The notes beneath the pieces were generated by a model that was not told the DNA's origin, ran no database searches, and saw only the letters and a program-made list of their open reading frames with translations. Shown here in pieces: positions 8,931-63,142 of a stretch of 64,000 nt of DNA (positions are counted from its first letter, which is position 1; the number at the start of each line of letters is the position of its first letter). Position numbers and translations under genes: made by a program. Source of the stretch: Mobula hypostoma (taxonomy: Eukaryota); contig NC_086097.1 of assembly GCF_963921235.1 (NCBI RefSeq), positions 15,810,001 through 15,874,000 of the forward strand. The letters are read 5' to 3'.

Positions 8931-9807
8931 ACAACAGGAATTCTGCAGATGCTGGAAATTCAAGCAACACACATCAAAGTTGCTGGTGAACGCAGCAGGC
9001 CAGGCAGCATCTGTAGGAAGAGGTGCAGTCGACGTTTCAGGCCGAGACCCTTCATCAGGACTAACTGAAGGAAGAGTGAGTAAGGGATTTGAAAGTTGGA
9101 GGGGGAGGGGGAGATCCAAAATGATAGGAGAAGACAGGAGGGGGAGGGATAGAGCCGAGAGCTGGACAGGTGATAGGCAAAAGGGATACGAGAGGATCAT
9201 GGGACAGGAGGTCCGGGAAGAAAGACGGGGGAGGGGACCCAGAGGATGGGCAAGAGGTATATTCAGAGGGACAGAGGGAGAAAAAGGAGAGTGAGAGAAA
9301 GAATGTGTGCATAAAAATAAGTAACAGATGGGGTACGAGGGGGAGGTGGGGCCTTAGCGGAAGTTAGAGAAGTCGATGTTCATGCCATCAGGTTGGAGGC
9401 TACCCAGACGGAATATAAGGTGTTGTTCCTCCAACCTGAGTGTGGCTCCATCTTTACAGTAGAGGAGGCCGTGGATAGACATGTCAGAATGGGAATGAGA
9501 TGTGGAATTAAAATGTGTGGCCACTGGGAGATCCTGCTTTCTCTGGCGGACAGAGCGTAGATGTTCAGCAAAGCGGTCTCCCAGTCTGCGTCGGGTCTCG
9601 CCAATATATAAAAGGCCACATCGGGAGCACCGGACGCAGTATATCACCCCAGTCGACTCACAGGTGAAGTGTTGCCTCACCTGGAAGGACTGTTTGGGGC
9701 CCTGAATGGTGGTAAGGGAGGAAGTGTAAGGGCATGTGTAGCACTTGTTCAGCTTACATGGATAAGTGCCAGGAGGGAGATCAGTGGGGAGGGATGGGGG
9801 GGAACGA
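8931..9807 (-). mobile_element. Penelope-like element, young 5'-truncated copy with GIY-YIG endonuclease ORF end and terminal repeat
   Basis: ORF 9354-9824(-) has CESTGVIYCVRCSRCGLLYIGETRRRLGDRFAEH...LEEQHLIFRLGSLQPDGMN; apparent TSD atgctcaa (8923-30 and 9808-15). Confidence 0.92.
9026..9063 (-). ncRNA. Minimal type I hammerhead ribozyme of the Penelope-like element
   Basis: Minus strand tagtc-CTGATGA-agg gtctcgg cct-GAAA-cg-TC-gactg: intact core boxes, stems I and II pair, stem III reduced to palindromic ACGT. Confidence 0.8.
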
Positions 9808-10649
9808 ATGCTCAATAGGTTCACCTTAAAAGAGCCTTTTTAGAACTTGTCAGGATTGCTGGAAGACAAATAGAGAGGAATGTGAAAGGAAAAATTCAGA
9901 ACCAGAATGATGGGACTTTCCAGCTGAAAGAAGCCAGATCAGATTAAAAGGACATAAGGATGAAGTAGACCTGGTGTGTGTTAAGAAGTGAGCTACTTGA
10001 ATTACAGATCATAGAACATGGAGGGCCCAGCAGCAACAGGTTGGAAAAGCTGAGCAGGAAGTATTGCATTAATTACTGAAGCTTAAAACAATGAATTCCA
10101 CTGATGAATGACATAATACAAGTATACTAGAAGATATGAGTAATGAAAGTTGTGAGGCATTAGTAGTCCTGATAAGAGAACTTATGTACACTAGGGTTGT
10201 CATACTGGGTTTGAAGCATTGCAGCATGAATCCCATACAAAAAGTGTAACAAAACATCTTCAAGTACTTACATATCCAGTAACCAACAATGTGCAATAAA
10301 AATGGAATTGATTATGAAGGGAAAAATATAAGGACAGGTGGCATGTTGATTACTTGGGGCTCGGGGGTGGGGCGGAGAGGATGTTGCGATTGCTGAGGTG
10401 GAATGGAGGGTGTGGTGATAAGATGCAATCACCAATCAGGAAAGGGTGATGATTTGATTGATGGGTAGTTAAGAACCAAGTTGGACAAAGATTATGAGCA
10501 TTGTGAGTGGGATGTAAGTTGATACATTAGGGAAGGGATAGGGGTTGCGCAGGGGATCTGCTGAGTAACTTAAAATGTTGGGGTCCCAGTGTTGGGCTTG
10601 TATCCACTCAGGAAGGATCCTCAAAGCTTGCTGAAGCATCCTATGGATT

Positions 10650-41482: not shown

Positions 41483-41875
41483 TCTGTGGGTAATGTGTCA
41501 GACCTCCAGCAGCTACACAGCAGTGTCACTTGGCTTCTCTTGCTGGGAACATGAACGCCTGGGAGTGAGGGAGGGAGGGTTGTGTTTGAGAAATTTAAAG
41601 TTTGGAACCTAGGCATCCTCCATAACACTGGCCTGTCCAAAAATTCCATTATCAAGGAGACAATTAGCCCACAACTAACTCCCACAGATGTTAATGACAA
41701 AACTAGTCACACTTTAAGGATACATACTGACCTGGAAACCATGAAGAACTTCCCTCATCTACTTTATTTAGTTCAGCAAATGGGAACTTGGTTTAATGTC
41801 TCATCCAATAAACAGAGCCCTCTGATGCAGGAGTCTCTACACCAGGAGTTGCTGAGCCCCCGATGTAGGAGTCTG

Positions 41876-42927
41876 CATCGTGTGTCCCCGGGCTTCCCGG
41901 TACGGGACTCTCTGTATCACGTGTCTCCGGGCTTCCCGGTACGGGACTCTCTGTATCGTGTGTACCCGGGCTTCCCGGTACGGGACTCTCTGTATCGTGT
42001 GTCCCCGGGCTTCCCGGTATGGAACTCCCTGTATCGCGTGTCCCCGGGCTTCCCAGTGCGGGGCTCTCTGTATCGCGTGTCCCCGGGCTTCCCGGTACGG
42101 GACTCTCTGTATCGCGTGTCCCCGGGCTTCCCGGTACAGGACTCTCTGTATCGCGTGTCCCCGGGCTTCCCAGTGCGGGGCTCCCTGTATCGCGTTTCCC
42201 AGGGCTTCCCGGTACGAGGCTCCCTGTATCGCGTGTCCCTGGGCTTCCCGGTACGGGGCTCCCTATATCGCGTGTCCCAGGGCTTCCCAGCTTCCCGGTA
42301 CGGGGCTCCCTGTATCACGTGTCCCCGGGCTTCCGGGCTTCCCGGCTTCCCGGTACGGGGCTCCCTATATCACGTGTCCCCGGGCTTCCGGGCTTCCCGG
42401 CTTCCCGGTACGGGGCTCCCTATATCGCGTGTCCCAGGGCTTCCCGGTATGGGGCTCCCTGTATCGCGTGTCCCCGGGCTTCCCGGCTTCCCGGTACGGG
42501 ACTCCCTGTATCGCGTGTCCCCGGGCTTCCCAGTACGGGACTCCCTGTATCGCGTGTCCCCGGGCTTCCCGGTGCAGGGCTCCCTGTATCGCGTGTCCCC
42601 AGGCTTCCCGGTGCGGGGCTCTTTGTATCGCAGGTCCCCGGGCTTCCCGGTACGGGGCTCCCCGTATCGCGTGTCCCCGGGCTTCTCGGTGCGGGACTCC
42701 CTGTATCGCGGGTCCCCGGGCTTCCCGGTACGGGGCTCCCTGTATCGCGTGTTCCCGGGCTTCCCGGTGCAGGACTCTCTGTATCGCGTGTCCCCGGGCT
42801 TCCTGGTACGGGACTCCCTGTATGGCGTGTCTCCGGGCTTCCCGGTACGGGGCTCCCTGTATCGCGTGTCTCCGGGCGGGGCTCCCTGTATCGCGTGTCC
42901 CCGGGCTTCCTGGTACGGGACTCTCTG
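41876..42927. repeat. GC/CpG-rich minisatellite, 39-bp unit, about 26 copies
   Basis: Unit TATCGCGTGTCCCCGGGCTTCCCGGTACGGG(A/G)CTC(T/C)CTG; central units carry extra 8-bp gcttcc(c/g)g sub-repeats. Confidence 0.97.
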
Positions 42928-44024
42928 TCCTGTGCTGGAGCTTTTGTTTAGATTATGTGTTCATGGAGTTTGAACCCAATGATGATACTCGCATCACAGA
43001 GCCAAGGCTGAAATTAAATATTCCTGGTGAAACTTGTGCTCCAAGTCTTGCCAGGAATTACAAAGTGCCAAATAAAATTATGACTTACTTCTAAGCATCC
43101 ATGATCTAAATACATCTTAAATAAAATTAATCAAAGAAGTACTATCATGGAGGGCTGGTGTTTGTTTGCTTTAAATGCAAAGTAGTAATAAATATCATGC
43201 ATCATAAAATCTGAATAGGAGTAAATAGACTCAGTTCACAATTAACAACTCGAATTATCCTTTGATTATTATTTCCCAAGCATCACGAGTTCCTTCTTTG
43301 TTTTAATAAAGCTCTAGTGGTTGCTAATTTCAGACAGTGCCATTAATCAAGTGAGCCATCAAAAAAAACCTGAACCTATTTAAAAGCCAAGTTACAGCTG
43401 GATAAAGCTTGGTTTCTTGTGCAACTTTTGGAATGTAGAATAGTTGATTTGGAAGATAGATAACCATATTTACTCCAAACAGGATAAGCACAATTGTTTC
43501 CTTATTCTTTGAGAAATTAACATATTGCAAACCCCGAAGCTTTTGATGATTGAAGTTAATAAATTGTAGATAAAAGACAAACACCATCTGTGAGTGATTT
43601 CTGAAATCCCAGGATAATTAAGTTGTATTCAACTTCATGTTACCGTACTAATGGTGAACTATTGAAGAGGAAATGTGAATGGCCTTATCTGTTCTGTGCT
43701 CTTCTCACTTGCACTGGGCTGTTATCGTGCTGTATTGGATTTACAACACTGGTACTTTCATTCTCCATATGACTGGAAATAATTCTTTGTTGAAGCACTT
43801 GCAACTTTGCAGGAGAAATGATTTCCTTGTTTCTGATACCAATCTGCAACACCCAGTGTTATTTTTGATTGGTATCTATTAAGTCCACATTTGTTTAATC
43901 TTTTACATGCTCTTCTGGGTTAATGGCCCCAATTCAAATGTGCTGGAAGCAGTGGGATATGGTGGTAGTTGATTTGGGGCTTAAATTGACTTGCCACGGA
44001 AGTTGATAGTGTGAGGTGACTATG

Positions 44025-46615: not shown

Positions 46616-46820
46616 AGTTACCACAGCAATACATGTCTTTGTTTTCACCATGGATTTTATCCTCTGTCACCTTACCTAATGTCTTTAATGCCTCTAGAAA
46701 TTAATATGTTTATTTACTCTCTAAAGTGATATATTTTTACTTGTGCAGGAACCCTGTGACTCATTCGTAACTTCCAAGAGAACGACATCCCAATAATTTT
46801 TCACCACAGTAACTGGAGGA

Positions 46821-46854
46821 ATGGCAGCTTTCAAGGTAGATCCATCCACAGCAG
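46821..46854 (+). CDS. TC2N: TC2N-like gene, putative first coding exon (MAAFKVDPSTA-); exon 46749-46854 including 5' UTR
   Basis: Acceptor ttttacttgtgcAG (46747-48). ATG at 46821 in strong Kozak context (ggaATGg) with an in-frame TAA upstream at 46794. Donor AG|GTGGGT at 46855 leaves phase 1, matching the phase-1 start of the next exon. No homology support for this exon alone. Confidence 0.6.
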
Positions 46855-47659
46855 GTGGGTGTCTGTAAAACTGCAAACCAGACTGTCGTTCAGCGTCCCA
46901 ATATAGTGTTTCGAGACTTTTGTTATTGACTGAGTTCCTGACACTGGAGTGCAGTAGTCATCTGCTGAAGAATCACATTAAATGCTTTCCAAATTGCCGC
47001 TGATTGCAACCTCATTTGAATACTTTGTAGCTATCTGTGGATTTTGATGTGTTCTGGATTCAAGATTGCTTAATGTCATTTTCAGTACATAGGTGTAAAG
47101 GAGAATGAAATCCAGTACACAAATACAATAAAAGATAAAGCACACAATAATAAACATATGATAATAAATATAAGTACATAAGAGCTTGTATAAATGGACT
47201 GATTGCATGAACATAAAGTGACGTTTGGTACAAGCTTATCTGTACATATGGTGACAGAAGGGAAATGATAAAGTAGTGGTATGAAGTCATGGGACATCAT
47301 GGGCAAATTATCATAGTTGCATAAATCAAGACTTTCAAGATTTTAGTTGGTAGATTAAACAAAAGCTTATCTATTCAGAATGTATGTATATCATTGCATG
47401 TTCCTTCACTGTTTAACTGTGATATCCATCCTTTTAATTATCTGGTACTAGACCAAGGAGCTGTAAATGATAAGAAATGCTAGACATCTGTTGCTTTTTT
47501 AGTGGTAATAGTTTGGTAATAATTGTAAAATGATCTATATCTTTGGGAAGGAAGTGAAGTAAACGACTAAATGCATTAATATGGAGTCAGTTAGGTTCTT
47601 GTAAAGTTACCTGTGGGGAAAATAATTTGCAGGGAAGTTGGGGAAACTGATGGAAATAA

Positions 47660-48020
47660 ACTCACAAAAATTCTGGAGGTATTCAGCAGGTCAGACAGCA
47701 TCTATGGAGAGGAATAAACAGGCACTGTTTTGGGCAGAGACTCTTCATGAGAACTGGAAAGAAAGGCAGAATAAGAAGGCGGGGAAAGGGGATAGAGTAC
47801 AAGCTGACAGGTGATAGGTGAAACCATGTGAGGGAATGGAAGGCGTGTGGGTCAGGGAGGGGGGCAGGAAGTGAGAAGCTGGGAGGTGATAGTTGGAAGA
47901 GGTAAAGGGATGAAGAAGGAGGAAGCTGATAGGAGAAGAGTGTGGAGCATGGGGGTAAGGGAAGGAGGTGATGGGCAGGTGAAGAAAAGGGGAGGGGTAA
48001 GATGGAAAGGAACTGGTAGG
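47660..48020 (-). mobile_element. Penelope-like 3' region, decayed
   Basis: ctggaggtattcagcaggtcagacagcatctatgg followed by purine-rich tract as in 25500-25900. Confidence 0.7.
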
Positions 48021-50654
48021 GTTGTTCTCCCCAGAGTTGATAGAGAGCCAACCTACTTCAGCCATAACTACAATGATTTGATTCTGTTCTGAAGCCATCA
48101 CAGTATTTATGATTGGGAGCTGAGCAAACTCCATATATTGTTCACGTGACTTGGTAATAACATTGAGGCCATTACAAAATCAAATCTGTACAGGCTCCTC
48201 CCAGATTATGGCAGGGTCTCTTTCTGTGATCTGTTAGCAGCCCAACAGTTTACAGTCACAGTTCTGACTTGCGAACCAAATTCCCACAGGTGCCTAAAGC
48301 TCCATAGCAGTCAGCAAACCACCCCATCGGTCTCCCAAGCACTCATGTGTATGAGCCGCTCATAAGTTGGGGAAGGTTTGTACTGTAATGGAATGTGTTG
48401 AAGTAGAAATCAGAGTTAACTACTTACAAGTGTACCCTTGCATTCCAGGAAATTGCTGATCCCTATCTGTGATCTCTCTTTGTGGAGACAGTACTGAAAT
48501 TGTTCCACAATATTGAAAATATCGGCCAGTATATGATCGATATAATTTATGTTGATTTTCATTGAAGTTCCCTTCAGACGCATTAGATCTTGAAACACAA
48601 TAGAACCTGGCTGAGATTGACATTTCAATAACTCAAAGTCAATGGCAAAACACTCTGTAGAAAAAATTGCCAAGAACACTTATGGTCATGAGACCATGAT
48701 TGCCCACATCATACTGACATGGCACGTGATGATGATGAATGATGTCTATCTCTTCTTCTAATTCTGCTAATGGGTATTTTGAAAGTTTGCTCTTAAAACT
48801 TTGTATGACAGGAAATGAAACATTGGCTCACACAGTGTTGGCTCAGGTTTTGCTATTCTAACAACAGTCAAACTATTGACGGCCTAAGACAGGAACCTCA
48901 TTTCCCAAGTTACTCAGCCCTTTCCTATAAGCTGCACAGTTTATGGCCCCTTTCAATTGTGGGAAATTAATTAGTGTGAACTTAATTTGCAAATAAAATT
49001 CTATATAAAGTGCCCTAAGAGTGTTACGCTTTCTTGTATGAAGTCTATTCAAGCTTGTAATGGCTTGCTAAGTTTGATTACTGCTTAGCAAATTATCTGG
49101 CCCTGAACTAGGAATGTACTTTATTTGTGTAAGTGGCAAAACATGATGAATTTTAAAATGACTTTTTTGCCTACTCCGGGCTGCTCCGGGTTTCAGATTT
49201 GAGGAATCAATTTTGGTCTGGAATGCTGTTGTTCTCAATTGTTTGCATGATTTTTTTTCCTCTTGCAGATTGAGTATTGGTTTTCTATTTTTATTGTCAT
49301 TCTTTTTCTTTCTATAATTGTGTCCTTCTGGGTTTCTTGCTTTGTGGCTGCCTGTAAGCAAACAAATCTGAAGGTTGTATAATTTATACATTATTTGATA
49401 ATAAGTCTTGAATCTTGAATTTCAAAAGTTGTTTCTGACATTGCAGCATCTATATTATCCTTAATTGTATGTTGTTTAATCTGAGTTCTATAAGAATTAA
49501 GGAAAAAACCAAGTCCAAGCTACTATGACCACTGGACCTTAAAGGGCAGTGGGAAAAGCTATCACTTCACCACTGACAAGGCCATGCAAATGCTGCAAAT
49601 TAGATTGCTGTTAAGTTCCACTTTGCTCTCCAAACTTCCCATCAACAAAGTCTAGTAATCTGTAATTTGTTATTGTTTATTGTATTATGGCAAACAGTTC
49701 ATGCATTTCTCCCTGCTTGACAACACAGCCAGAATGCATCAATGGCTGTTAAGTTTAAAAAAACGGGTTCCCTTGCTTAATGGTATTTGTCCATGTCATA
49801 AAAAAGTTGGGATCCCCTAGTTTAAAAAAAACTCATAATATCAGCAATGCTTTTATCACTGCTAATCCCATTGGTAATCTAATAAACTAATCTTCTGTTG
49901 CTTCACAGAATCTTGAATCTCAATGGTCCTTTCAAAACCCATGTTAATTCTCCCTAAAAATTCCAATAGGTTTACGTGGCAAATTTTGTGAATTCAGAAC
50001 CATGCTATTAAATTATAATTCTTCCATTTTGATCATTGAAGACATACTTTAAGTCTTTGCTGAGTATTCCTAAGTCCACAGTGGATACTAGCTATGAGTG
50101 GTACTTGCATGTGCTGTTGGTCAGGCATTCTCTTTAAGTAACTGAGTAGCCTCCATGCTCCAGACTCCAGTGATACGAGGAGAAAGCAGGAGATTGTGGC
50201 TGAGAGGGAAATGGATGAGCCATGGTGAAATGGTAGAGCAGACTCGATGGGCCAAATAGCCTAATTCTGATCCTAATGGTCTTGTGTTCCAGTGTGTTGT
50301 TCAAATGCAAATTTACTACTCAGACACAAATTATAGAAGGATTTGCTGTTCTTCAATAAGTTTACACAACTTGGGATCCAAGTTGATCAGGCTTGACTTC
50401 TGTAGCTGTTTGACTTCAGTCTACATATTGTTGAGAATCTCTATTTAATTTTCCATCAGAGTTCAGAATGACAAATAGGGTCATGTAACTTCCAGGGATC
50501 AGCAAGACATACGACAAAGGAGCTGAAGATACCTTGGTTGCATTTCCATTAAATGTCCTGCTTCCCCCCGCCATTTCCCAACAACAGCCCTCCCCTTCTG
50601 TTACAGAAAAGTAGTGACATTCACGACTATCTAACTTCACCAGACTAAAAGACG

Positions 50655-51087
50655 TAGACCATAAGACAAAGGAGCAGGTCGGCCATTTGGCCCATCGAGT
50701 CTGCTCTGCCATTTTATCATGAGCTGATCCATTCTCCCATTTAGTCCCACTCCCCCGCCTTCTCACCATAACCTTTGATGCCCTGGCTACGCAGATACCT
50801 ATCAATCCCTGCCTTAAATACATGCAATGACTTGGCCTCTACTGCTGCCCGTGGCAACAAATTCCATAGATTCACCACCCTCTGGCTAAAAAAAATTTCT
50901 TCGCATTTCTGTTCTGAATGGGCGCCCTTCAATCCTTAAGTCATGCCCTCTCGTACTAGACTCCCCCATCATGGGAAACAACTTTGCCACATCCACTCTG
51001 TCCATGCCTTTCAACATTCGAAATGTTTCTATGAGGTCTCCCCTCATTCTTCTAAACTCTAAGGAATACAGTCCAAGAGCAGACATG
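50655..51087 (-). mobile_element. CR1 3' fragment
   Basis: LGLYSLEFRRMRGDLIETFRMLKG, TRGHDL, FFSQRVVNLWNLLP. Confidence 0.9.
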
Positions 51088-51167
51088 TAAGCAGCTCTTA
51101 GTGAGAGATTTAGCAAAAACGCGAATGTACTCCCTAAATGACTCAATAAAAGTTGAGTACAACACTC

Positions 51168-51520
51168 AATCATTTGTTATGTGCCGTGCCGTATGACGTG
51201 GGCGATCATGGTCTTTCCATGACCATGACTGTTCTTGGTCAATCTTTTTACAGTAATGGTTTGCCATTGCCTTCTGCTGGGCAATGTCTTTACAAGTTGG
51301 GTGACCCCTTCCATTATCAGTGCTCTTCAGAGATTGTCTGCCTGGGGTCAATGGTCACATATCCAGCTCACTAGCTGCTCATATGACCGGTCACCACCTG
51401 CTACCACTGGTTGACATGTCCATGATAGTGGGCTAAGCAGGTGCTACACCTTGCAGGCTAGTGGAGGGAAGGAACACTTTGCACCTCCTTTGGTAGAGAC
51501 GTATCTCCACCCTGTCACCC
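51168..51520 (-). mobile_element. RTE-tail retroposon (copy 5)
   Basis: Reverse complement of 7325-7694 family. Confidence 0.75.
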
Positions 51521-51932
51521 AAGAGTACAGTACAAAATAAACACCAATATTGAAAAATGATGATCAATACTTGTTTCCTAATTTAGATTAAATAAAAGTA
51601 ACAAAATAGCATTTGTTACTTCCAGTATAAAGATCAACTAAAACCGACCTGCTCACACTAGTTCAAATGTGCTGGTAGCCAGCATGGACCTACAGTAAGC
51701 TGGGTGAGAGAGCCACCTCAATGTGGCAGTGCTGTGCTGAACCAAGTATCACGCAATCCAGGAGGCTATTTGAGCCTTGGGTTCCTGCCTTCATTCTGGG
51801 AGTTATCCAATTTACCTCACTCAGTTCCTGCTCCTTCCCTGTAGCTCTGGCATTGTCATTGTACATGGAACCCTATTACCTTGCAGCTTTTCTGGAAATC
51901 CTATTAAACCTCGCTTTTCCCATCTCTTTCAG

Positions 51933-52067
51933 CAACACCGTGGTTGCTAGTTCCAGTTTTTATTGGTTTGCTGTTTGTTGTTGTACTGGGGATCAGCACA
52001 GAGTTTCTAAAGGATTGCTGCAAGAAAGCCATGAAGGGGAAAAAGAAAGCTGTCACCAAAGAAACGA
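51933..52067 (+). CDS. TC2N: TC2N-like exon encoding hydrophobic helix plus STEFLKDCCKK motif
   Basis: Acceptor cttttcccatctctttcAG (51931-32), donor GTAAGT at 52068. Translation (A)TPWLLVPVFIGLLFVVVLGISTEFLKDCCKKAMKGKKKAVTKET; ISTEFLKDCC resembles the human TC2N N-terminus MATEFIKSCC as I recall it. Confidence 0.85.
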
Positions 52068-52254
52068 GTAAGTATTCTTTTGCTATCCACAGTGATTTTT
52101 TTTTGTTTGATAAAATTGGGGTTTGTGATATGATAATGCAGATAATGATAATGCATGGTAATGGACAAACAAGAGAAAATCTGCAGATGCTGGAAATCCA
52201 AGCAACACACATGGTAATGGACAGAATGCACTTGCTTAAAAAACATGCTCTTCT

Positions 52255-52530
52255 CACAATAATAATCTGCTCTTCTATTATTCCTTCCGAAGTGGATGAT
52301 CTCACATTGTATTCCATCTGCCAGACCTTGGTCCACTCACTTAACCTAACTATATCCCTCTGCAGACTCTCCACATCCTCTGTACAACTTGCTTTTCCAC
52401 TCAGTTTAGTGTCATCAGCAAATTTTGCTACACAACACTCAGTGCCGTCTTCCAAATCATCAATGTAAATAGTAAACAGCTGCGGGCACAGCATCGACCC
52501 CTGAGGCACCCCTCTCACACTGACTGCCAC
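52255..52530 (-). mobile_element. CR1 RT fragment in TC2N-like intron
   Basis: GVPQGSMLCPQLFTIYIDDL..KFADDTKL..WQMEYN. Confidence 0.85.
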
Positions 52531-53252
52531 TGACGTAGTTTTAAATACTATGTGATAACATTGAATAAAATGGAAAAATAACAACAACAATTGCAATGTC
52601 CACTTCTGAGGCAGTCTCTTCGGGTTGAGAATGACTTGGTTCCACACTGAATTTGTGGGTTTTGAGGTGACAGAGGATGTTGTGAGAATTACTGGCTCTT
52701 CCAGTGACGTGGCAGTGAGTGGGGATTTTGTAACGCGATGCATCCCTCTGCAAGGTTCCTCTGAGCTTCTGATGCCTCTGTTCTCAGTAGCATCACAAAT
52801 GCTCCTCCCCCATTTTGAGCATTTCAAGATTCAAGATTGTTTACTGTCACAAAACCCTTCAAACCTCCTCAAAACCAGTTCTCCTGCCAACAGTGCATCA
52901 TTCTATTACACTGTGTGTCACCTGAAGCTCTAGTCCCTGCTTCCAGTCAACGGTTGCCTTCTTCCCTACTAGTAATTGGTGGGGAAATTGTTGATGCTAG
53001 TCATGAAATAAGATCTGAGAAGTAAAATCACCGGAGTACAGCGCATTCTTATACGACTAACCCCTGTCATCCGGTATTGGGAGGTCTTGTCATGGGTGTA
53101 ACTTCTAAATTTCCATGAATTCTGAAATCTCTTTTAACCTCATTTTACCTTATTTTTCAAGAATTCACTTACTGATTATAAATACCACAGCAATTCTAAC
53201 TTAGTTAAGTATGTTGGTGATAATTACTGGTGGCATTTTTTTTTGCTTGTAA

Positions 53253-53522
<270 letters not shown>

Positions 53523-53599: not shown

Positions 53600-53870
53600 A
53601 AACTAGAAGGGAGCAAAGAGATTCATGAGGATGTTAATGAAACTGGAGGGATTGAATTATGAGGAGAGTCTGGATAGGCTGGGACTTTTTTTTTCCTGGA
53701 GTGAAAGGGGCTAACTTTATAGAGGTTTATAAAATCATAAGGGGTGTAGGTAAGTTGCATGCACAGTCTTTTCCCCTGCATAGGGGAGTACAAAATTAGA
53801 GGGTGGAAAAAGGAACAGTCAAAAGAGACTCGAGAAGCATTTTCTCCATGCAGAGGGTGATAGGTGTATT
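53600..53870 (+). mobile_element. CR1 3' fragment, decayed
   Basis: gagattcatgaggatgtt..tatgaggagag..tagaggtttataaaatcat. Confidence 0.7.
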
Positions 53871-54103
53871 TATATGTGGGTGTGTGTGTGTGTGTGTGTA
53901 TACTGTAAGCTGTTTTTTATATCACTTTCTGCATGGGTTAATCTTGATTTGATTTGAAGTACGTAGTGGAAAGATATCCATCTCCATCCTCTCTTTATTT
54001 GCCCTTGAAACCACAATATTTATCTGTGAGTCTTAAGTTTTTGTTAATATCGGTAAACATTTTGTAAATACACTACTGTGGCAAAGTTTTAGGCACTCCA
54101 GGT

Positions 54104-54331
54104 CAGTGGTCCCCAACCACCAGGCCGCGGACCAGTATTGGGCTGCAAATCATGTGCTACTGGGCCGCGAGGAAACAATATGATTTGGCGATATGAAACG
54201 ATATGAGTCAGCTGCACCTTTCCTCATTCCCTGTCACGCACCGTTAAACTTGAACAACACCCCCCCTCCCCCCCACCCCCCCCCCCCCCCCGTCGGCCGG
54301 TCCGCAGTGCAAAAAAGGCTGGGGACCCCTG
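54104..54331. mobile_element. hAT-Charlie-type MITE
   Basis: TIRs cagtggtccccaacc / ggctggggacccctg; 8-bp flanks ctccaggt and ctcgagat (6/8 match, near the NTCTAGAN preference). Confidence 0.75.
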
Positions 54332-54361
54332 CTCGAGATAGATATGTATCTACCTAAGGTA

Positions 54362-54397
<36 letters not shown>

Positions 54398-54799
54398 CTA
54401 TAACACTTTTGCACAATACCATACAGTGATCCAAATTTTAGTCTGAGAGTCTTAACCAGGGAGATAGAGGGGTTTAGAGAGAATATTTCAAAATCCGAGG
54501 TGCAATGGGAGGCTGAAGATGAGGTTGGAAACACCGAGTGAGGGGGAGAACTAGAGATCAGATGGAAGACTAGAGTTTGTGGCAGAGTGCAGGGGATGAT
54601 TGTGGCATCAGATGAAGATACAGAGGTGTGGATGCAGTGGGTTTTAAACCTAAGAATGGGAAATTTTAAACAACAGCTTGCTAAGGGTCCATTCTTGGGG
54701 AGGACTGGTCCAAACTAATCTGTCAGTTGGATCATTATGATTAATGGATAGAGATGGAACACAAACAGTTTTCTCACACTTAATTATTTTGACTGCCAG

Positions 54800-54970
54800 T
54801 TCTCTCAAGAGCTCAGTACAATGAAAGAAAACTGGAGCTGTCCAATTCACTTCAAAATATGCCAGATATCGATGATGTGTACAACCCCAATTATATGATC
54901 CCTAACATCATGCCAGGATCTGGGAGACAAGTACTACCCAAGGGGAAAGCAGGAAGCCCTAGTGGATCAG
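54800..54970 (+). CDS. TC2N: TC2N-like exon
   Basis: Acceptor ttttgactgccAG, donor GTAAGG at 54971, phase 1/1. (V)LSRAQYNERKLELSNSLQNMPDIDDVYNPNYMIPNIMPGSGRQVLPKGKAGSPSGS aligns with recalled TC2N ARASFGDRKVELS...YDVYNPFYM. Confidence 0.9.
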
Positions 54971-59974: not shown

Positions 59975-60680
59975 GATCAGAATCAGGTTTAATATCACCG
60001 GCATACGTCATGAAATTGGTTTTTATGTGCAGCAGTACATTGCAATACATAATAAAAGCTGTAAATTGTGGTAGGAGCTATATAAATTAAATACGTAGTG
60101 TAGAAAGAGGGAGATGAAGTAGTGGGGCAATGTTCATGGGGTCAATGTCTATTCAGAAATTGGATGGCAGAGGAGAAGAAGCTATTCGTGAATCATTGAG
60201 TGTGTGCCTTGAGGATTCTGTACCTGTTCCTTCCTGATGGTAGCAATGAGAAGAGGGCATGCACTGGGTGATAGGGGTCTTTAATGATGGATGCTGCCTT
60301 TTTGAGGCATCATTTTTTTGAAGATGTCCTCTGTGCTGGGGAGACTAGATGATCAGACTCCATGATGGAGCTGACTGAGTTTGCAACTTTCTGCAGCTTG
60401 TATCAGTCCTGTGTGGTGCCACCACTCACCATACCAGACGGTGATGCGGTCGGTTAGAATGCTCTCCACGATCGATCTGTAGAAATTTGTGAGTGTCTTT
60501 GGTGACACACCAAATCTCCTCAAACTCCTAATGAAGTATAGCTGCTTTTGTGCCTTCTTTGTGGCTGCGTCGAAATGTTGGGTCCAGATTAGTTCCTCAG
60601 ATATTGACACACAGGAACTTGAAATAGCTTACTCTCTCCGCTTCTGATCAATCGATGGATGAGGGCAGGGGCGTGTTCCC
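59975..60680 (-). mobile_element. Rex1-like LINE 3' fragment
   Basis: KKAQKQLYFIRSLRRFG..NFYRSIVESILT; (tcagaa)n tail. Confidence 0.85.
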
Positions 60681-63056: not shown

Positions 63057-63142
63057 CATGGGAACTGAGAAGTCCAAAACTGAGCAATGCACAAGGTTTA
63101 AGCAGTTCCACGTCGGATCTCTCGTCTGGCCAGCGAACACAG
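63057..63142 (+). CDS. TC2N: TC2N-like exon (last one in window; gene continues downstream)
   Basis: Acceptor cctcctttttcAG, donor GTAAGT at 63143, phase 1/0. (A)WELRSPKLSNAQGLSSSTSDLSSGQRTQ aligns with recalled TC2N [30 protein letters not shown]. Confidence 0.88.

Follow-up and report, generated by a model that had tools for sequence, protein, structure and literature searches.

A predicted synaptotagmin-like membrane anchor in the TC2N gene of the ray Mobula hypostoma

Introduction

The synaptotagmins, among them synaptotagmin-1 (Syt1) and Syt7, are built from a short N-terminus, a single transmembrane helix, juxtamembrane cysteine and basic residues, a linker, two C2 domains (C2A and C2B), and a WHxL motif. 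In Syt1 the N-terminus lies outside (N-out), and the juxtamembrane cysteines are palmitoylated. TC2N (Tac2-N) of the mouse has been described as a nuclear protein that has no transmembrane region; both the word "nuclear" in its name and its description as an atypical tandem-C2 protein reportedly go back to the work of Fukuda and Mikoshiba in 2001. Here we analyze the 5′ part of TC2N in the ray Mobula hypostoma, which is contained in a stretch of 64,000 nucleotides (C1:15810001–15874000 of the 3.48-Gb genome; hereafter the window). A preliminary description of the window, made from its letters alone, had proposed that the gene encodes a membrane-anchored, synaptotagmin-like TC2N. The proposal is supported by our results: the exon in question is expressed in transcript contigs, its predicted helix is present in all 16 chondrichthyan sequences compared, and the protein shares the synaptotagmin layout; membrane insertion, topology, and palmitoylation are predictions. 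Taken as a whole, an anchored ray TC2N with the layout of a synaptotagmin is in our judgment probably the right explanation.

The preliminary description had left open whether such a protein was already annotated. NCBI or UniProt in fact already has helix-bearing models from 14 named species of cartilaginous fish, and Callorhinchus is represented by a record whose accessions are of the curated style (NP_001279089.1/AFK11637.1); all public helix-bearing models carry the name "nuclear protein." With these sequences in public databases, the present analysis has its value in interpretation rather than discovery. The TC2N papers that we found are, to judge by their accessible text, nearly all cancer studies, in which the protein is placed in the nucleus and cytoplasm or compared with C2 proteins. 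No description of a membrane-anchored TC2N or of TC2N evolution was found in the accessible text of the literature searched, the coverage of which excludes subscription journals.

Results

The window gene is the ray orthologue of TC2N

The gene in the window is the 5′ part of the single-copy ray orthologue of TC2N. The first 57 residues of the NCBI protein for Mobula birostris TC2N (P0001, 506 amino acids) are identical to the ray translation, and P0001 is 98% identical to exon 3 of the window. The preliminary description had called the gene TC2N-like, and protein searches returned TC2N, and no other C2 gene, as best match; the named top matches were all "tandem C2 domains nuclear protein," with 98–100% identity to Mobula birostris. 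In a careful maximum-likelihood tree (36 rows, 497 columns), in which P0001 stands in for the window gene, the protein falls inside a gnathostome TC2N clade of chondrichthyan and bony-vertebrate proteins with a support of 100/100.

A search of the ray genome with P0001 gave 11 matches, of which 10 are collinear + strand exons of one locus reaching C1:15924998, the eleventh being weak (30% identity) and located elsewhere. We therefore take TC2N to be a single-copy gene of ~68 kb; no intronless copy was seen in this search. The exons for C2A and C2B lie beyond the window (C1:15895114–15924998, + strand). P0001 has two Pfam C2 stretches (E 5.5e-15) and ends in INWHNLSLT, which contains the WHxL motif; across 27 TC2N-family sequences W500 does not vary, and H501 and L503 hardly do. 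The motif is given as a feature of TC2N in one published account (PMC11758731).

The ray protein is collinear with bony-vertebrate TC2N from EF(I/L)KxCC to WHxL, with an identity of 46–51% over ~93% of the length, and the two share the block TEDxLLSKLPxxGxExPFVVP as well as both C2 domains. What bony-vertebrate TC2N lacks, in contrast, is any counterpart of ray residues 1–33, that is, of the N-terminal tail and the hydrophobic helix. The mouse protein as described differs from the ray protein in the same way, its lack of a transmembrane region and its nuclear localization being properties of the mammalian member and not criteria of orthology. Although its layout is that of the synaptotagmins, the ray protein is orthologous to none of the numbered ones, the TC2N family forming a separate clade (99/96).

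A hydrophobic exon is spliced in frame and expressed

The coding sequence begins at ATG 46821, whose surroundings (GGAGGAATGG) have A at −3 and G at +4, and a TAA in the same frame (46794–46796) lies within the same exon, 27 nucleotides (nt) before it. The coding part of this exon (46821–46854) is 34 nt long and consists of 11 codons and one base, specifying MAAFKVDPSTA and the first base of Ala12. The 5′ untranslated region (UTR) of the exon occupies approximately 46749–46820, its start being good to ~3 nt; since an acceptor sequence, ...TTGTGCAG, directly precedes 46749, at least one more 5′ UTR exon lies upstream. The donor directly 3′ of 46854 is CAG/GTGGGT, and the acceptor before 51933 consists of a pyrimidine tract followed by CAG. 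Splicing completes the Ala12 codon as G+CA, and the frame stays open through the 135-nt exon that follows, nucleotides 51935–52066 of which are translated as TPWLLVPVFIGLLFVVVLGISTEFLKDCCKKAMKGKKKAVTKET. The donor directly 3′ of 52067 is CGA/GTAAGT, and the junction with 53263 again keeps the frame (A+CT = Thr), which runs on through exons 3, 4, and 5.

The splice of 46821–46854 to 51933–52067 that had been proposed in the preliminary description yields exactly the peptide noted there, and the same N-terminus is found in M. birostris P0001. Translation likewise bears out its uncharged run of 18 residues, followed in frame by CC and a Lys tract (Table 1). The run starts 14 residues past the initiator, and EFLKDCCKK and the Lys tract come after it; Cys40 and Cys41, which are candidate palmitoylation sites, are encoded at 52016–52021, 8–9 residues past the helix.

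Evidence for expression came from sequencing runs. Eight small runs were guessed to be RNA (word shares 0.11–0.19), none being recorded as such, and four of the eight were mapped on the window; these four represent two studies (three runs from one study and organism code, one from another). We treated them as transcript assemblies because their contigs skip introns; such contigs give no junction counts and cannot exclude rare isoforms. In each of the four, one long contig (2949, 2502, 2969, and 1857 nt, respectively) covers 51930–52067, 53263–53451, and 54797–54966 unbroken, so that skipping of the hydrophobic exon, an outcome against which the preliminary description had warned, was not seen in any run. 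The offsets of three letters at the contig junctions arise because CAG fits both sides. The depths of these contigs (297, 26.7, 25.1, and 21.8) are found again at 46783, 46818, and 63111, and the contig piece on the ATG exon is placed at ~46746–46851, as computed from distances to piece ends. Junctions 52067/53263 and 53454/54800 are therefore directly seen in contigs, whereas 46854/51933, the other junction for which the preliminary description had looked to RNA, is supported indirectly, by the matching depths at 46783/46818 and the computed piece ends. We conclude that the hydrophobic exon is expressed, that it keeps the reading frame, and that it is constitutive among the contigs examined.

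Two annotated isoforms in other rays differ farther downstream and keep the hydrophobic N-terminus: P0003 (Hypanus sabinus X2) has no equivalent of exon 4, and P0006 (Narcine bancroftii X2) is without part of C2A.

Table 1. Features of the window (positions are those of the 64,000-nt stretch)
Feature	Position	Strand	Evidence or remarks
ATG-bearing TC2N exon	46749..46854	+	genomic sequence and transcript contigs
GT...AG intron, 5078 nt	46855..51932	+	genomic sequence; missing from transcript contigs (indirect support at 46854/51933)
Exon for predicted membrane anchor and juxtamembrane region, residues 12–57	51933..52067	+	sequence, contigs, M. birostris identity
Predicted transmembrane helix W15–I32 (WLLVPVFIGLLFVVVLGI), 18 uncharged residues	51941..51994	+	hydrophobicity, conservation, AlphaFold2
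Juxtamembrane motif EFLKDCCKKAMKGKKK, Lys-rich tract and Cys40-Cys41	52001..52048	+	translation, conservation
Exon 3, linker; conserved block ending ...YIQP	53263..53454	+	98% identity to P0001; contigs
Exon 4, linker	54800..54970	+	contigs; protein match; missing from Hypanus sabinus isoform X2 (P0003)
Exon 5 (AWELRSPKLS...GQRTQ), last TC2N exon within the window	63057..63142	+	protein match; contig cover at 63111
Open reading frames with ALKBH8_N (two) or GIY-YIG (one) matches	950–1234, 60356–60628, 9357–9839	+, −, −, respectively	among very high-depth repeats

The hydrophobic N-terminus is conserved in cartilaginous fishes

We compared the N-termini of 121 proteins: 16 from chondrichthyans, 104 from bony vertebrates, and the translation of the ray exon. 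The chondrichthyan set (14 named species and one further transcript) takes in rays, skate, sawfish, electric ray, seven sharks, and Callorhinchus. All 16 have the segment, which is 18–20 residues long, contains no charged residue, and reaches a Kyte-Doolittle mean over 19 residues of 2.34–2.70 (2.67 in the ray), and in all 16 the layout is one of 6–14 residues, the hydrophobic segment, and then (E/D)F(L/I)KxCC. From chimaera to rays the frame is open and the substitutions within the segment are hydrophobic for hydrophobic; the stops and frameshifts that the preliminary description had named as evidence against its proposal occur in none of the 16. Three more Callorhinchus members also have the segment, one of them being the record with curated-style accessions mentioned above.

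No helix was found among the 104 bony-vertebrate proteins, in the first 90 residues of which the 19-residue window reaches a maximum of 1.67. The segment is missing from the fuller coelacanth model H3BIA4, which starts MATDFIKSCC, and from clusters of bowfin, bichir, paddlefish, and teleosts; the lungfish model, being short at its N-terminus, is uninformative on this point. Bony-vertebrate TC2N typically starts MAxEF(I/L)KxCC (for example, MATEFIKSCC in Manis and MAAEFIKNCC in Bombina), and this start falls where the chondrichthyan helix would end. The motif (E/D)F(L/I)KxCC is thus common to the N-termini of both groups, and within it C40 is invariant and K38 nearly invariant among the 27 TC2N-family sequences.

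Hydrophobicity alone is weak evidence for an anchor: 15 of the 811 stop-free six-frame segments of at least 40 amino acids in the window hold a 19-residue stretch with a mean of 2.5 or greater. The case for more than chance comes from the spliced contigs, the identical N-terminus in M. birostris, and the charge-free helix in 16 of 16 chondrichthyan proteins.

Predicted topology and the C2 domains

Read from its sequence, the ray protein has a layout that is supported as that of a synaptotagmin: a short N-terminus, a predicted helix, CC, basic residues, a linker, two synaptotagmin-type C2 domains, and a C-terminal WHNL. The hydrophobic segment is predicted to be a signal anchor of N-out/C-in orientation, and the cysteines after it are possibly palmitoylated. 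The summed insertion free energy of the segment, on a Hessa scale, is −1.29 kcal/mol in the ray and ranges from −0.67 to −2.29 kcal/mol over the 16 chondrichthyan sequences. Basic residues clustered after a hydrophobic segment are the rule for N-out signal anchors, and all 16 sequences have 0–1 Lys and Arg residues in the N flank versus 2–4 within 15 residues past the helix. An AlphaFold2 model built from an alignment of 27 sequences has a helix at residues 14–46 and two beta-sandwich domains, at ~240–360 and 368–502, most 10-residue blocks of which have a predicted local distance difference test score (pLDDT) of 78–94; over most of residues 45–236 the pLDDT is below 50.

Three observations weigh against this interpretation. 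The C flank carries little net charge (−1 to +3), with −1 in Hemitrygon, Hypanus, and Narcine. The confidence of the modeled helix is modest, with pLDDT block means of 53–72 for residues 11–40 and 46 for residues 41–50. Finally, mammalian TC2N has been reported in nucleus and cytoplasm (PMC7778556).

The matches among solved structures were synaptotagmins in 23 of 23 cases, the best being Syt7 (E 4.7e-15), and the HMMER alignment to Syt1 spans query residues 236–504. At the ten positions that we take to be the calcium ligands of Syt1, however, no acidic residue is found in this alignment: the residues are Ser, Asn, a gap, Thr, and Arg in C2A and Ser, Thr, Ser, Ser, and His in C2B. The ray-type protein thus differs from Syt1 in being without all ten acidic ligands, and calcium-independent action is therefore to be expected. 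It differs from the synaptotagmins also in its linker of ~190 residues, most of which is modeled with low confidence.

We propose that the segment would be an uncleaved signal anchor, inserted co-translationally, such that the short N-terminus would be outside (lumenal or extracellular) and the remainder cytosolic, as in Syt1. Cys40 and Cys41 would be palmitoylated at the cytosolic face, and the linker, if disordered, would tether two C2 domains that would act without calcium, through protein or lipid binding. Being anchored with a cytosolic remainder, the protein would be an integral membrane protein in cartilaginous fishes, and not a nuclear one.

Is the anchor ancestral?

The preliminary description had added that the anchored form is possibly the ancestral state, and this suggestion stands in part. 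Relatives of TC2N were found through an all-library HMMER search and cluster look-ups. A second lamprey gene, LOC116943175 (P0139, 599 amino acids), has a strong N-terminal helix (Kyte-Doolittle 3.04) together with the TC2N motifs DYVERKL, GSEWHLR, and WHKLN, and a sturgeon "TC2N-like" protein, P0137 (412 amino acids), also bears a helix (2.71); in both, Cys and Lys residues follow the helix, and both belong to the TC2N family by the tree. Within the family, there is a cyclostome clade (100/99), in which the helix-bearing LOC116943175 is sister to a helix-less pair at 96/86, and the sturgeon TC2N-like gene branches outside at 90/83. The majority of the synaptotagmin-like relatives outside the family have an N-terminal helix. 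The tree requires a minimum of five state changes, which we read as three among the outgroups and two inside the family; parsimony would accordingly favor an ancestral helix that was lost twice over three gains inside the family.

A second line of evidence comes from sturgeon TC2N itself. Four sturgeon models have an in-frame hydrophobic stretch, for example ...LVIFALRYWLPSFLVLILV..., immediately before the RefSeq start MKAMATEF. Its Kyte-Doolittle mean of 2.25–2.62 is reached by just 0.15%–0.38% of background windows; elsewhere, the corresponding stretches of bichir and one lizard reach 2.8% of background, and that of a snake is unremarkable. The sturgeon stretch is a possible relic of the anchor. 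Were the anchor ancestral, its loss could have been simple: the start Met of bony-vertebrate TC2N aligns with Ile32, where the helix ends on the cytosolic side, and the codon for this residue (ATC, 51992–51994) is one base off ATG.

Against an ancestral anchor stand the following. In lamprey and hagfish, the proteins annotated as "TC2N-like" are helix-less, and these models may be complete. The sturgeon TC2N-like gene and P0139 are long branches whose placement is unsure. The N-extended sturgeon models are non-RefSeq, and the RefSeq and transcript-derived proteins begin MKAMATEF. Direct comparison was made with an order-preserving test of N-terminal homology, in which a hidden Markov model (HMM) of 13 chondrichthyan N-termini was scored against 12 segments, with 1000 shuffles each. 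For sturgeon P0144, 667 of the 1000 shuffles scored as well as the real segment, and for lamprey P0139, 884 did so; neither these two nor the squamate extensions reached significance, and no score at all was obtained for hagfish P0133 or Rhineura P0035. The best values, those of lamprey P0134 (38 of 1000) and of Polyodon X1 and sturgeon P0137 (77 of 1000 each), were marginal and in no case convincing. In P0139, it is a non-helix segment that aligns with the ray pre-Cys region, and its helix and that of the ray may not be homologous.

Some of these observations are what would be expected if the anchor were real but had been added on the chondrichthyan stem to a protein whose older N-terminus was the Cys cluster, with bony vertebrates and cyclostomes keeping the anchor-less state. 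The helix-less lamprey and hagfish proteins and all 104 bony-vertebrate sequences are consistent with such a gain, as are the lack of significant similarity of the ray helix to P0139 or P0137 and the alignment of the pre-Cys region with a part of P0139 other than its helix. But three independent gains would then be needed in the family, as opposed to two losses, and every one of them would have hit the same place, N-terminal of a Cys/Lys juxtamembrane motif. Nor would a gain account for the N-terminal helix of most of the related synaptotagmins outside the family or for the hydrophobic frame that stands open immediately before the start at the sturgeon loci, whereas the loss of an N-terminal helix takes just one new start codon. 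We regard a chondrichthyan gain as possible, at roughly one chance in three.

We therefore lean toward an anchor that was ancestral to the vertebrate TC2N family, giving this somewhat better than even odds; we hold it no higher because the direct tests of N-terminal similarity were not significant. For the same reason, and because the annotated lamprey and hagfish proteins are helix-less, the ancestral state is not proven.

Several observations on these relatives deserve mention. P0139 (also P0279; Petromyzon marinus LOC116943175) is named "uncharacterized" or "synaptotagmin-6-like" in the databases, its assignment to the TC2N family resting on tree and motifs. Some 40 residues past its helix is a segment that resembles the beginning of the lamprey TC2N-like protein without a helix (MSWLLEAARSHVKRCLC versus MEWLWAHVSATLGSLRRFCRKC); this likeness suggests that an N-terminal truncation took place in parallel in cyclostomes. 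In Polyodon spathula X1 (P0020) the N-terminus MAAISVSSLTTSG precedes VMAAEFIKNCC and resembles in sequence, and equals in length, the exon-1 peptide of rays and sharks (for example, MAALEVDPSTTAS in Pristis); it looks as if exon 1 had been kept and joined to a helix-less exon 2.

The sturgeon TC2N-like proteins (P0137 and P0276–P0278; 392–419 amino acids) have an N-terminal helix followed by KNKNKCFFKC. P0137 and P0139 are only 26%–33% identical to the ray protein. Relatives of P0137 were found in Acipenser and Huso only, 3 of 3997 candidates having passed, namely P0137 itself and two synaptotagmins, and no clear counterpart was found in the ray genome (best E 2.3e-7, 30% identity). This gene may be either an ancient paralogue or a duplicate that evolves rapidly.

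Other readings of the hydrophobic segment

Could the segment instead be a cleavable signal peptide, leaving a lumenal or secreted mature protein? Its closeness to the N-terminus and the small residues after the hydrophobic core (G-I-S or G-L-T), which could fit a cleavage site, would agree with this. A core of 18–20 residues is rather long for a signal peptide, however, and the distribution of basic residues, with 0–1 in the N flank and a cluster after the segment, is the pattern of an N-out anchor under the rule mentioned above. Moreover, the protein has features that belong in the cytosol, namely the C2 domains, the Cys-Cys/Lys motif, and the synaptotagmin-type architecture; we consider cleavage very improbable. 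Slightly less probable still is that the hydrophobic codons are untranslated 5′ UTR and that the protein begins at Met45 (52031–52033) or later, for which nothing speaks beyond the bony-vertebrate starts downstream of the equivalent position, and against which stand the in-frame stop before ATG 46821 in the same exon and the strong context of that codon, the open frame with hydrophobic-for-hydrophobic substitutions in all 16 sequences, and the loss of the invariant Cys40 that a start at Met45 would entail.

Repeats and other features of the window

A 39-bp minisatellite of ~27 copies (80% matches; consensus CTGTATCGCGTGTCCCCGGGCTTCCCGGTACGGGACTCC) occupies 41873–42928 and is responsible for a GC peak (0.508) and for long open reading frames (ORFs) in several frames on both strands at 41555–43091. 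The GC-rich region 42001–44000 was considered as a promoter CpG island of TC2N and rejected, as it corresponds to this minisatellite.

The intron after the helix exon contains a reverse-transcriptase fragment on the − strand (Pfam RVT_1, E 7.7e-7, 29.5 bits versus a cut-off of 29.6). The match lies within a stop-free − strand frame (51907–52830) that by chance overruns the helix exon, and loose, repeat-associated contig ends are found from 52165, ~100 nt beyond the donor of that exon. An origin of the helix exon from this neighboring retroelement was rejected, the repeat ends beginning at 52165 and the exon being conserved to chimaera.

Elsewhere in the window, two ORFs have Pfam ALKBH8_N matches (E 6.5e-8 and 2e-11) and one a weak GIY-YIG match (E 2.8e-4, below cut-off); all are probably retroelement remnants and not genes. 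No further host gene was found among the 91 ORFs of at least 90 amino acids that were scanned (102 listed). Simple-sequence repeats (CA/TG runs) at 53864–53908 and 54252–54406, in the introns flanking exon 4, were excluded from contig mapping.

Discussion

The ray gene can be fitted into a history of the family in which TC2N was originally a calcium-independent, anchored synaptotagmin, a state that cartilaginous fishes would have kept. On the bony-vertebrate stem the anchor would have been lost when initiation moved to the Met aligned with Ile32, a shift after which the Cys cluster would have come to lie at the very beginning of mammalian TC2N. The human Cys cluster would then be a vestigial palmitoylation site, perhaps one that still attaches the protein reversibly to membranes, and in sturgeons a copy of the helix-coding sequence would survive, either decaying or put to alternative use. 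We give this history as a whole about an even chance of being right.

No question of long standing hangs on the finding, which should be moderately interesting to researchers on C2-domain proteins. An anchor that is conserved and expressed across cartilaginous fishes would place the origin of TC2N among the membrane-tethered synaptotagmins, and it would account for the odd Cys cluster at the N-terminus of mammalian TC2N, with the prediction that mammalian TC2N may be lipid-anchored. More generally, the case illustrates how an integral membrane protein could turn soluble through a shift of its start codon.

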